Source: Pseudomonadota bacterium
Lineage (GTDB): Bacteria > Myxococcota_A > Polyangia > Polyangiales > JAKSBK01
Length of the DNA: 64,000 nt
Assembly: GCA_022361155.1 (NCBI GenBank)
Contig: JAKSBK010000095.1
Coordinates: 27,462-91,461 of the forward strand
Direction: 5' to 3'
Of the stretch, positions 702 to 61,881 are shown piece by piece. Both the position numbers and the translations under genes were made by a program. Numbering within the stretch: the first letter of the stretch is position 1; the number at the start of each line of letters is the position of its first letter. The notes under the pieces are model-generated. The model searched no databases and was not told the DNA's origin. It saw nothing but the letters and a program-made list of their open reading frames with translations.

Positions 702-790
702 GGAGGAGTGGCCGAGCGGTCGAAGGCGGCGGACTTGAAATCCGTTGTGCCCGCAAGGGTACCGGGGGTTCGAATCCCTCCTCCTCCGCC
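702..790 (+). tRNA. tRNA-Ser (anticodon UGA), class II with long variable arm
   Basis: GGAGGAG acceptor pairs with CTCCTCC at the 3' end. Anticodon stem GCGGA/TCCGT has loop CTTGAAA (anticodon TGA). Variable arm is TGTGCCCGCAAGGGTAC. T-loop is GGTTCGAATCC. Confidence 0.9.
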
Positions 791-34403: not shown

Positions 34404-34487
34404 TGCGGACGAGAGGATTTGAACCTCCACGGGGTTTCCCCCACCAGATCCTTAGTCTGGCGCGTATGCCAATTCCGCCACGTCCGC
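34404..34487 (-). tRNA. tRNA-Leu with anticodon AAG (class II)
   Basis: The minus strand reads GCGGACG TG GCGGAATTGGCATACGCG CCAGA CTAAGGA TCTGG TGGGGGAAACCCCGT GGAGG TTCAAAT CCTCT CGTCCGC A. It is colinear with E. coli tRNA-Leu. Loop CTAAGGA places AAG at positions 34-36. Confidence 0.85.
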
Positions 34488-47375: not shown

Positions 47376-48731
47376 CTAGAAATGCCCTGTTGCGTGCGTG
47401 TAGACCTCGACGAGAACCTGCCCCTCGAGCCGAAAGCGCTGCCCTGGTTGGTCGATCACGGCCCTGTGCTGCGGATTCGGGGTGCCTGCACCGCATGCGA
47501 GACTGCCGGTCGCTGCGATCGTGTTGTCGAAACAACGGTTGCCGCCCGTGATCCAATGCGGCGTATCGCGAGCCAGCCGAACACCGGCGGTGAATCCCAC
47601 GTAGCGTGCCGCGCGAATGACTACACCGGCCTGAGCTGCCATACGCGCGTACGAGTCGGTATCTGTGAGGCCGGCGAAGCGCGGCATCGGACCGGGGGTA
47701 GGATCACGGGCGGTAGGATCCATCAGCGTGAGAAAGGGACTGCTCGAGGTGCCTAGTGCATCAAACAGGGGGCCATAGTCGCGGCCGCGAGACAAGCGGC
47801 TGCACAGCAATCGAAGGTCCACGGTAACTCGCTGGAAGCGGGCACGGCTCTCCCAGGGTACGATTGCGACGCCCACAACCGCTTCGACGCTGCGTGGAGG
47901 GCGGGTCAGTGCCCCGCGCGGCAGCCCCTGGCCAACACCAAACACGGCACGGTTGGCGACCGGCCATTCCGCCTGAAACGCTACTCCAGCCAAGGGCTCC
48001 AGGTAACGGTAACGGCGCGACGTTCGCGTCTCGAAGCGCAAGGCATGGGTACCACGGCTGACTGCCCGCGCCTTTCCGGCGCGCATGGGTTCACCCAGCC
48101 CGAAGCGCCCCTCCACCATCGCCACCCAATTGGGAAGGCCTGGACGGCGGAACTGGTTCGTCAGGCCCCAGGCAAGTCCGAACCCCACCCAATCGAAACC
48201 CGAACGCGCTGGTCCCTGGTAGTGAGCTCGGTCCCCGAGAGCAAACAAGCGATCGTATTGCAGACGGTCCCGGGGCGCGGGCGGCCTGCTATAGAACGAG
48301 CTGGGGACGGGCGCGAGCAACGCGCTATCGATCTCGCTCGCAGTGCGTCCTGCGGGGACACGAAGCAGCCTTTCGTCGCTTAGTACCAAAGGGAGGGTCG
48401 AGTAGAGCATGAGATCCCGATAGAGGCCCACCCTAAGCCCCACGACGAGGTTGTTGGTGCTGTGGACGTGGTCAAGCATATGAATGTGGTGCGCTCGGCC
48501 GGCTGGCGAGCCTGCCCCTTCGCGTACGACCCGGCCGGCCACACGCCGTCGAACGAAGCCTATCCGCACGTCCATGTCGAACCCCTTCTGTTCGTCAAAC
48601 GCGTCGATGACGTCCGTGTAGCTGGCGGGTTCTGCCATCAGGCGCACCTCGTTCTGCTGGGCGTTGACAGATTCAGCACCCAGGCCGAACAACGCGAGGG
48701 CGAAGGGCAACCTCGAGCTGCACCCGTTCAC
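47376..48731 (-). CDS. secreted hypothetical protein (outer-membrane-like composition)
   Basis: GTG start and signal peptide NGCSSRLPFALALFGLGAESVNAQQ. Rich in Arg/Gly/aromatic alternating segments. Ends in an aromatic residue (...VYTHATGHF). Confidence 0.65.
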   Translation of the reverse strand: MNGCSSRLPFALALFGLGAESVNAQQNEVRLMAEPASYTDVIDAFDEQKGFDMDVRIGFVRRRVAGRVVREGAGSPAGRAHHIHMLDHVHSTNNLVVGLRVGLYRDLMLYSTLPLVLSDERLLRVPAGRTASEIDSALLAPVPSSFYSRPPAPRDRLQYDRLFALGDRAHYQGPARSGFDWVGFGLAWGLTNQFRRPGLPNWVAMVEGRFGLGEPMRAGKARAVSRGTHALRFETRTSRRYRYLEPLAGVAFQAEWPVANRAVFGVGQGLPRGALTRPPRSVEAVVGVAIVPWESRARFQRVTVDLRLLCSRLSRGRDYGPLFDALGTSSSPFLTLMDPTARDPTPGPMPRFAGLTDTDSYARMAAQAGVVIRAARYVGFTAGVRLARDTPHWITGGNRCFDNTIAATGSLACGAGTPNPQHRAVIDQPGQRFRLEGQVLVEVYTHATGHF

Positions 48732-48898
48732 ACTAGTCCTTCAACCGCGTGACCTCGATCGCCCTCACGGCCGGTCTGGCGCCGTCTTCCGCGTCCTCCT
48801 CCTTGAAATGGGACCTGCCATTCCTGTGTCGTCGTCCTTGCATCCGGCACCAGCTCCACCGCGATCATCGATCAATGTCACGCGTTTGAAGGACTAGT
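48732..48898 (-). promoter_or_regulatory. long-range 20-nt inverted repeat (19/20) bracketing the intercistronic spacer
   Basis: The arms are 48732-48751 (actagtccttcaaccgcgtg) and 48879-48898 (cacgcgtttgaaggactagt). The upstream arm contains the PP2C stop codon. The downstream arm contains the GAAGGA Shine-Dalgarno 5 nt before GTG 48731. Confidence 0.5.
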
Positions 48899-50180
48899 CC
48901 TGTACGGCCTCGCTCACGAGCGGATCCACTTCTTCCATGGACAGTCTTCCCCGCGCGTCGCCCAGCTCCTTCGAGGTACTGCGCAGACGCTTTGCAAGGA
49001 CACCCAGAAAGCTCCACAGCAGTTTCACAGCAACGTCGTGGTCCTCCCTCACGATGTCGAAGAACTGCTTGCGACGCAGCACGATGAGCTTGGACTCCAA
49101 GATGCTCGTAACGCTCGCGCTGCGAGGTGCCCTGTCGATCAGCGCCATTTCTCCAAAATGCTGGCCAGCACCAAGAACCACGATCTCGTTGTCTCCCGAG
49201 TGCACACGAACCTCACCCGAGAGCACGATGTAGAGCTCTTCACCGTCGTCGCCCTCCTTGACGATGACCTCGTCGGGTCCGAAGCACTTGCTTTCGGTAA
49301 AACCCATCACCCGTACGAGCTCCTGATAGGTCAGGTAGCGGAAGACCGGCATCTTGTGCAGGACCTCCAACTTGAGATTGACCTCTCGAGCAAGCGGATC
49401 CGGGCCAGCTTCCTCGGGCGCCTCGAGCACGATCGCGCTAACGTGGTCGGCACCTCCTCGCTGTCGAACCGCATTGATGAAGAGCTGGGCGACTTGATCG
49501 GACGGGCCTTCCTCGAAGGTCTTGCGAATGTCGCTTGGCTCGAGATGCCCACTCAAGGCATCCGTGCACATTAGAAGACGATCGCCCGGCAGCAGGTCGA
49601 GATCGAACGTGTCCGCCTCGACGCTTTGGTGAAAGCCCACGGCTCGCGTAACGACGTTCTTGTATTCCAGCTTCTCGGCCTGTCGCTGCGTCAATCGGCC
49701 ACGCTTGAGCAGCTCGTTTATCAGAAGATGGTCTTCCGTGAGCTGGTGCACCGAACCCTCGCGGACGAGGTACACTCGCGAGTTGCCCACATGCGCCAGG
49801 TAGCCCCGCGAGCCAACGACCAGCAGCGCGTCCAGCGTCGTGCCGGCGCCCCGCTTCGAGGGCTCGGCTTCGGCCCGGGCAAACACGGCCGCGCACGCCT
49901 GCTGCAATGCCTTTTCCATCAGGCGCAGCAAGTCTTCGCGGGCCCTTGGCGACAGCCCGTTCTTCACGCCGTCGATGACCGCGGTTTCGGCGAGCAGGAC
50001 TTGGCGAAAAGTTTGTACCGCCAAACCGCTCGCTTCCGCGCTCGCCTCGTGCGATCCGACGCCGTCAGCCACCAGAAACAAGCCGAGGTCGCCATCCACA
50101 AGCACGCTGTCCGCGCCAGCACGTGAGGCGTTGCCGGAGTCGGCCGAGGACCAGAAACGCAGGGCCTTTCCTTCACTCAT
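48894..50180 (-). CDS. PP2C-family Ser/Thr phosphatase fused to a cyclic-nucleotide-binding domain
   Basis: The PP2C part has LFLVADGVGSH, TTLDALLV, and LLMCTDAL. The cNMP-binding part has GDDGEELYIVLSGEV...FGEMALIDRAPRSASV. Confidence 0.9.
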   Translation of the reverse strand: MSEGKALRFWSSADSGNASRAGADSVLVDGDLGLFLVADGVGSHEASAEASGLAVQTFRQVLLAETAVIDGVKNGLSPRAREDLLRLMEKALQQACAAVFARAEAEPSKRGAGTTLDALLVVGSRGYLAHVGNSRVYLVREGSVHQLTEDHLLINELLKRGRLTQRQAEKLEYKNVVTRAVGFHQSVEADTFDLDLLPGDRLLMCTDALSGHLEPSDIRKTFEEGPSDQVAQLFINAVRQRGGADHVSAIVLEAPEEAGPDPLAREVNLKLEVLHKMPVFRYLTYQELVRVMGFTESKCFGPDEVIVKEGDDGEELYIVLSGEVRVHSGDNEIVVLGAGQHFGEMALIDRAPRSASVTSILESKLIVLRRKQFFDIVREDHDVAVKLLWSFLGVLAKRLRSTSKELGDARGRLSMEEVDPLVSEAVQD

Positions 50181-61799: not shown

Positions 61800-61881
61800 T
61801 GCCGGGGGCGGGACTCGAACCCGCACACCACTGGGGTCGGCGATTTTAAGTCGCCTGCGTCTGCCATTCCGCCACCCCGGC
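61800..61881 (-). tRNA. tRNA-Leu (anticodon UAA), class II
   Basis: The minus strand reads GCCGGGG TG GCGGAATGGCAGACGCA GGCGA CTTAAAA TCGCC GACCCCAGTGGTGT GCGGG TTCGAGT CCCGC CCCCGGC A. Confidence 0.9.

Follow-up and report, generated by a model that had tools for sequence, protein, structure and literature searches.

What fills the odd 162-nt gap between two co-oriented genes on the chromosome of an uncultured Myxococcota-like MAG? Elsewhere in the window, by which we mean the whole 64,000-nt stretch of DNA analysed here, other co-oriented genes occur with gaps of 2, 4, 6 and -4 nt. The upstream gene (48894..50180) encodes a 428-aa PP2C phosphatase with a cyclic-nucleotide-binding domain (Pfam PP2C_2 and cNMP_binding). 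The downstream gene (47376..48731) encodes a 451-aa secreted protein, with a signal peptide and a C-terminal Phe, from a family that has no name and no Pfam or NCBIfam model. Both genes, and every feature of the spacer between them unless a strand is given, are read on the minus strand, which is the mRNA strand. We conclude that the 167-nt spacer is probably a lone MITE (miniature inverted-repeat transposable element) with TA-GTCCTTCAA termini, from a family without a name, that entered a pair of tightly coupled genes at the stop codon of the first.

The setting is that of an ordinary chromosome. Genes for lgt, an SDR, a sigma-70 factor, rsmI, an M50 protease and an OmpA-like protein make up the neighbourhood, and no transposase, integrase or reverse transcriptase was found within 7 kb on either side of the unit. 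In several Polyangiales-like genomes, the 451-aa family is syntenic with a PP2C-cNMP gene. Sandaracinus supplies the downstream protein's best named relative (41 % identity); database searches gave no relative closer than about 42 % identity, and a related-locus search of genomes gave none. The right-hand edge of the gap is set by the start codon, a GUG at 48731. An alignment of homologues supports this start: in all of them, a signal peptide and a conserved LxLMxEP block precede the position of the ATG chosen by NCBI. The ENA gene calls likewise use this GUG, and judging by the aligned proteins the true start probably lies 31 codons ahead of the one in the NCBI annotation MJD61_03120 (420 aa).

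The spacer is dominated by an inverted repeat. A 20-mer, ACTAGTCCTTCAACCGCGTG, at 48732-48751 on the plus strand has its reverse complement, with one mismatch, at 48879-48898. This is the repeat that a sequence-only reading of the window had pointed out, and it is present where that reading placed it; none of 100 dinucleotide shuffles of the window yielded a comparable 20-mer pair. Its extent had been understated, since the 19/20-nt match is the outer part of 30-nt arms that are 90 % complementary (27/30). The 5' arm (48869..48898) holds the UAG stop of the PP2C/cNMP gene (48896-48894) and an anti-SD-like UCCUUC. The 3' arm (48732..48761) holds an SD-like GAAGGA (48742-48737) and abuts the GUG start (48731-48729). 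The mRNA strand thus reads ...GUA CAG GAC UAG UCC UUC AAA CGC GUG AC ... GU CAC GCG GUU GAA GGA CUA GU GUG AAC..., and the coordinates bear out the earlier placement of the stop codon in one arm and GAAGGA in the other, with GUG directly after.

On the mRNA strand, the whole spacer folds into one hairpin of ~62 bp. Beyond the 30-nt arms, pairing continues inward to about 48849/48780, and the stem contains long helices of 12, 8 and 7 bp that are almost perfectly paired. The folding calculation that the sequence-only reading had proposed gave -107.7 kcal/mol for the mRNA strand, against -66.8 +/- 3.9 kcal/mol for shuffled sequences (z = -10.4). The plus (antisense) strand reached -79.4 kcal/mol (z = -5.6). 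The mRNA strand folds ~28 kcal/mol better than the antisense strand because, of the differences between the arms, five are read as G.U on the mRNA strand and two as A.C. Among all inverted repeats in the 64-kb window with arms within 400 nt of each other, this hairpin ranks top.

The interior of the hairpin is asymmetric. Its inner and apical part (48780..48849) has a centre that orients the unit, and an inner stem segment pairs CUGGUGCCG (48853-48845) with CGGCGCCAG (48784-48776). The centre itself is purine-rich and poorly paired, with a small hairpin at 48824-48805. A strong SD-like purine run, AAGGAGGAGGA, lies in the poorly paired apex at 48804-48794, with no start codon downstream; it might serve as a ribosome standby site. 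The ENA gene caller places a 36-codon ORF inside the unit (48733..48843), running from an AUG at 48843 to a UAG at 48735-48733, 1 nt before the GUG at 48731. A protein look-up found this ORF at this locus only and returned no homologues, and it is probably not a gene.

The boundaries of the unit carry the marks of an insertion. From TA to TA the unit spans 163 bp (48734..48896; 61 % GC), reads 5'-TA GTCCTTCAAACGCGTGAC ... GTCACGCGGTTGAAGGAC TA-3' on the mRNA and forms a single long hairpin; without its TA flanks, the element proper occupies 48736-48894. Bacterial MITEs are shorter than 200 bp, have terminal inverted repeats and 5'-TA-3' ends, and yield transcripts that fold into one stem-loop joining the 5' and 3' ends and acting on neighbouring mRNAs (PMC2229807). 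IS630/Tc1-mariner elements characteristically target TA, of which a second copy arises on insertion (PMC2170065). The window unit is consistent with both descriptions: 163 bp, no conserved ORF, 30-nt terminal inverted repeats and a flanking TA on each side, in both cases in the context C-TA-G. The left TA (48895..48896), a putative target-site duplication, makes up the UAG stop together with the element's first base, G (48894). The right TA (48734..48735), its putative counterpart, is followed by G-U and then the GUG start.

Removal of a single period restores a compact gene junction. A 9-nt direct repeat, AGGACTAGT, has its left copy at 48893..48901 and its right copy at 48732-48740; the copies lie 161 bp apart, and the repeat reaches this length because the outer bases are palindromic. 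The left end carries a perfect 10-nt palindrome, GGACTAGTCC (48900-48891). Palindromic ends of this kind leave more than one possible length for the target-site duplication: TA, CTAG or up to the 9 nt of AGGACTAGT. Taking out one 161-bp period leaves ...CAG GAC TAG T GTG AAC..., in which stop and start are 1 nt apart, a junction of the type that other co-oriented genes in the window have. The empty site as reconstructed is GACTAGTGTG (spanning sequence ...GTACAGGACTAGTGTGAACGG...), and it places an AGGA at the distance from GUG that GAAGGA has today.

These features point to a simple series of events. The element would be a non-coding unit of ~160 bp with terminal inverted repeats of about 30 nt, mobilised in trans by a TA-targeting transposase of the IS630/Tc1-mariner kind. 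Its target would have been a junction reading ...CAG GAC TAG T GTG..., at the TA with which the PP2C/cNMP stop codon begins. Duplication of that TA on insertion would let the left copy and the element's first base G rebuild the UAG, while the right TA-G-T would leave the GUG start in place. The 5' end of the element would then happen to resemble an anti-SD at the stop, and its 3' end an SD five nt before GUG. The pairing of stop and anti-SD with SD follows because the element's inverted ends, GTCCTTC... and ...GAAGGAC, pair in the mRNA.

Related loci lack the structure. The nearest orthologous loci (L002, L004 and L006) keep local synteny, with PP2C proteins 58-59 % identical and 450-aa gene products 41-42 % identical to those of the window, and have the order PP2C, an extra gene, then the 450-aa gene. 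The extra gene is poorly conserved and has no Pfam domain (L002:2145-2978, 277 aa; L004:1322-2755, 477 aa; L006:1653-2840, 395 aa). The PP2C orthologues are also tightly joined to the next gene, which they overlap by 1 nt in L006 and precede by 7 nt in L004, much as the window pair would have been joined before insertion. The sequence-only reading had made its coupling switch depend on complementary arms in orthologues; in these three loci, at protein identities of 42-59 %, another gene stands at the position and no comparable hairpin is present. A tblastn search of the window junction found no similarity to a remnant of the middle gene.

The downstream gene is also differently equipped in these relatives. 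In L004, L005 and L006, the 450-aa gene has a promoter-like TTGAC-N17/18-TATTCT (TATCCT in L005) just upstream of its ATG (L004:2950-3000, L006:2950-3000, L005:2960-3000), ending about 9-10 nt before the ATG. This placement suggests that the mRNA of the relatives' 450-aa gene could be leaderless or near-leaderless. The 451-aa gene of the window is without this promoter-like site and abuts the hairpin unit instead. The 470-aa gene of L006 also has, ahead of its promoter-like site, a perfect palindrome of 18 nt, GTCAAGCGATCGCTTGAC (L006:2868-2885), which may be an operator.

Within the source population, five independent assemblies, ~99.9 % identical, all carry the identical unit (the window, L001, L016, L018/L023 and L024). 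Across these five, the surrounding sequence has SNPs at ~1 per kb, whereas the unit itself has none. None of the five has an empty site, and look-ups with rsmI and with the 36-aa ORF retrieved the filled locus only.

We searched widely for further copies of the unit. There was no second copy in the 64-kb window and about 0.5 kb of extra source sequence (about 65 kb in total), and none of the unit's GC-rich subfamily in plasmids or viral contigs. The arm 20-mer had 0 matches in 185,579 representative genomes and the arm 19-mer had 0 matches in JGI metagenomes, both collections that do not include the source organism. Translations of the unit's three open frames had 0 matches among 5.8 billion proteins, and a look-up of the 36-aa ORF gave no second genomic copy. 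No parent IS or transposase with the unit's termini appeared in the window neighbourhood or in plasmid queries with the terminal inverted repeats. About 70 Rhizobium matches to the window's terminal inverted repeat lay inside coding sequences with no inverted partner, and we discarded them as chance matches multiplied by orthology. A literature search for the terminal 11-mer returned unrelated primers only.

A two-arm pattern recovered three candidate relatives. The pattern, TAGTCCTTCAA-N(125-155)-TTGAAGGACTA, fixes 11 nt at each end with 125-155 nt between them, and it found one element on each of three metagenome contigs (L007:107-264, L008:1325-1481 and L009:661-818). These elements are 157-158 bp long, form end-to-end hairpins of -79 to -83 kcal/mol and have their own 25-30-nt inverted termini. 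TA plus termini of 9-10 nt (GTCCTTCAA) is common to all three and to the window unit; the search pattern imposed these termini and also required the TA flanks of the three, which are therefore not independent evidence of TA targeting. L007 and L009 are close relatives, and L008 has the same termini and centre in the opposite orientation. The flanks all differ, and host GC ranges from 40 to 56 %. The L008 element, on a contig of 56 % GC, follows the TAG stop of relA/spoT immediately and has a convergent ccoP on its other side, and the L009 element, on a contig of 41 % GC, lies between convergent ORFs beside type III CRISPR RAMP genes. At L008:1322-1327, the element abuts the relA/spoT-type TAG stop (ATC TAG | TAGTCC...), echoing the stop-codon insertion in the window, which suggests that TAG stops are favoured targets.

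The window unit is probably homologous to these three elements. With the alignment procedure repeated on decoys, the window unit shared 67 identical positions with L007, against 44.6 +/- 6.9 for the decoys, and 0 of 400 decoys reached 67. It matched 38 of 74 family-invariant columns, against 29.3 +/- 4.5 for the decoys, of which 4 of 200 reached 38. Pairwise local scores fell in the top 0.3 % of the empirical null (p about 0.003), and the interior similarity of the window unit is confined to the one orientation in which all four copies agree. A profile built from L007-L009 alone scored the window unit at 4.2 bits with an E of about 1, so the family link rests largely on the pattern-imposed termini, with size, architecture and a modest interior signal in addition; the interior similarity is only suggestive.

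All four elements also show a strand bias in their arms. In each, the differences between the arms are biased to G.U on one strand, and in the three elements whose context is known, the gene immediately upstream has the G.U-rich strand as its sense strand. The bias could reflect selection at the RNA level or a transcription-linked C-to-T bias. We rejected a strand-conserved wobble bias as a sign of RNA selection, since in homologous orientation it is not conserved: the ratio is 5:2 in the window, 8:1 in L007 and 5:2 in L009 but 0:4 in L008.

Folding calculations bear on what the hairpin would do to the downstream gene. In free mRNA with the hairpin, 27.8 kcal/mol is needed to make the stretch between the SD and +12 single-stranded. 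When a ribosome has the upstream UAG in its A site, and the nucleotides that it covers are held open, the same opening of the RBS costs 14.7 kcal/mol, and in the reconstructed element-free junction it costs 13.9 kcal/mol. By these computed values, the hairpin locks the RBS by about 13-14 kcal/mol extra and a ribosome on the UAG removes the excess. The coupling mechanism is physically sound because the opening cost falls from 27.8 to 14.7 kcal/mol, near the element-free 13.9 kcal/mol.

The coupling would work as follows. In a bicistronic mRNA, the ~62-bp hairpin would bury the -1 to -30 region of the downstream gene, and free 30S subunits would be largely excluded from the masked start. A ribosome terminating at the upstream UAG would melt the basal 12-13 bp and free the RBS held beside the stop. 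The downstream gene, having no promoter of its own, would then be translated mainly by, or just after, ribosomes finishing the upstream gene. A scan of 48500-49200 found no promoter or terminator in or near the unit, and a U-run is absent. The insertion would have been tolerated because downstream translation would stay dependent on upstream translation, as it was before. The sequence-only reading had described a built-in translational-coupling switch; its coupling is physically plausible (27.8 versus 14.7 kcal/mol), but a built-in or selected origin is improbable, the pairing being an automatic result of inverted termini. In this model, coupling is probably a by-product of insertion and not a purpose-evolved switch.

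The role of the SD itself is less clear. Of 48 longest-ORF starts in the window, taken uncurated, 6 have an SD-like tetramer upstream, a frequency close to chance for its composition, and the SD label of GAAGGA is uncertain because such motifs are this scarce. The source organism may rely little on SD-led initiation, and the SD itself may count for less than the masking of the start region.

The same observations can be read in other ways. A locally evolved, non-mobile hairpin could have been selected so that translation of the 451-aa gene strictly needs termination at the PP2C/cNMP stop, an origin we consider improbable. At its base, the helix does set stop codon and RBS directly across from one another, but this geometry, along with the TA flanks and the direct repeat, is what a TA-targeting insertion into TAG-T-GTG would be expected to leave. 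The extra 13-14 kcal/mol block on the RBS, lifted by a ribosome on the UAG, fits a selected switch as well, but a 62-bp hairpin is far more than SD masking needs, and SD motifs are not enriched at the window's starts (6/48). The five G.U and two A.C differences, through which the mRNA strand folds about 28 kcal/mol better, count for this reading too but are also explicable by C-to-T deamination of the non-template strand. The lack of a further copy in the 64-kb window, the representative genomes and the JGI metagenomes would suit a local origin; against it stand the elements that match the unit in termini and size but lie between convergent genes, at unrelated sites that are not such junctions, and the nearest orthologous operons, which are without the hairpin. 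A one-off local inverted duplication, by template switching or foldback and with no transposon involved, would also account for a unit that is single-copy across the data searched, and the perfect palindrome GGACTAGTCC at the left end could have seeded it. We regard this as highly improbable: neither arm resembles neighbouring sequence, the asymmetric centre and termini resemble independent elements from other organisms, and TA-bounded ends with clean restoration of the junction are not predicted.

Two further readings concern what the hairpin does and how far its family extends. The hairpin could act mainly on the RNA, either as an RNase III-type processing or stability site that uncouples the amounts of the two cistrons, or as an attenuator without a U-tract that lowers read-through. 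Such action is compatible with the MITE explanation and does not exclude it. The near-perfect double-stranded segments of the stem (12, 8 and 7 bp) recall Correia elements, whose hairpins, when co-transcribed, are bound and cleaved by RNase III (PMC2649163), and ERIC elements alter the stability of flanking mRNA segments (PMC2229807). A terminator-like U-run is absent, however, and cleavage in the basal stem would strip the RBS from a promoterless gene, which seems costly; we judge a mainly RNA-level role unlikely. A more ambitious reading holds that elements with GTCCTTCAA termini form an undescribed MITE family across distant phyla (40-65 % GC), with ends adapted to harmless landing in operon junctions, and that the window copy could have been exapted as a real switch that couples a secreted protein to a cNMP-sensing phosphatase gene. 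Insertion into a TAG stop would rebuild the stop, the outward GAAGGAC end would supply an SD, and the full-length hairpin would join stop and start so that coupling survives across 160 nt. Taken as a whole, this reading strikes us as distinctly unlikely. The plainer MITE explanation was the second choice of the sequence-only reading, which had suggested that the arms were MITE-like termini. It fits better, given the TA/CTAG flanks, the clean excision, the 163-bp hairpin without a conserved ORF, the three elements with the same termini at unrelated loci and the nearest orthologous operons without the structure.

Several established categories were considered and set aside. An integron attC is not indicated, there being no integrase within 7 kb and no fit to the RYYYAAC/GTTRRRY core sites, nor is a retron msd, with no reverse transcriptase within 7 kb on either side. 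The unit lacks the stem plus U-tract of an intrinsic terminator. It is not a Correia element, its termini (TAGTCCTTCAA...) differing from the 26-bp Correia repeat and its host being Myxococcota-like, not Neisseria. It is no described RNA family, as Rfam scans of the window and of L007-L009, at gathering and permissive thresholds, gave nothing relevant. The Rfam scan also placed three tRNA genes in the window, at 702-788 (+), 34404-34487 (-) and 61800-61881 (-), all unrelated to the hairpin.

If the MITE explanation is true, the locus is a clean natural example of a small transposon that sits between translationally coupled genes and leaves the operon unbroken. The target TA would lie in the stop, the first base of the element would restore that stop, and the folded ends would hold the following start close beside it. 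In terms of annotation, the explanation accounts for the odd 162-nt gap and supports the upstream GUG of the 451-aa gene. It also carries a caution, that MITE termini are not to be taken for purpose-built riboregulators. It introduces no new principle, since MITE hairpins in mRNAs and ribosome-dependent unmasking of an RBS are both already known.

The closest likeness is to MITEs that depend on IS630/Tc1-mariner elements. Members such as RUP of Streptococcus pneumoniae are, like the window unit, under 200 bp, non-coding, furnished with terminal inverted repeats and bounded by TA at both ends. Bacterial MITEs share with it a transcript that is one end-to-end stem-loop and an intergenic position (PMC2229807), as well as duplication of TA (PMC2170065). 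The named MITE families have no sequence similarity to the window unit, for which no cognate transposase was identified. Most described MITEs are AT-rich, whereas the unit is GC-rich (61 %) and single-copy in the about 65 kb examined.

Correia elements (CREE/NEMIS) of Neisseria offer a second parallel. They share the size class (153-157 bp), inverted ends of about 26 nt and an oriented core (PMC2649163). They also duplicate a TA target and are co-transcribed with their neighbours, where the mRNA hairpin alters expression (PMC2649163). The window unit differs in terminal sequence and phylum and has no evident IHF site or outward promoter. The proposed effects differ too, being translation coupling for the window unit and RNase III cleavage or promoter creation for Correia elements. 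ERIC/IRU elements of enterobacteria are likewise imperfect palindromes, of about 127 bp, that lie within operons and are transcribed; the stability of their hairpins depends on orientation, and they affect mRNA (PMC2229807). Their sequence is unrelated to that of the window unit, and their perfect termini are much shorter (7 bp).

The proposed coupling has known counterparts. In the coat-replicase region of RNA phage MS2 and in E. coli rpmI-rplT, an upstream ribosome opens a long-range pairing in which a translated segment further upstream masks the downstream RBS. The window differs from both in that its helix is not conserved in orthologues and its coupling comes from folding calculations. 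It differs also in the nature of the masking helix, which here would consist of the two ends of a transposon, about 160 nt apart, with the stop codon of the upstream gene within the helix.
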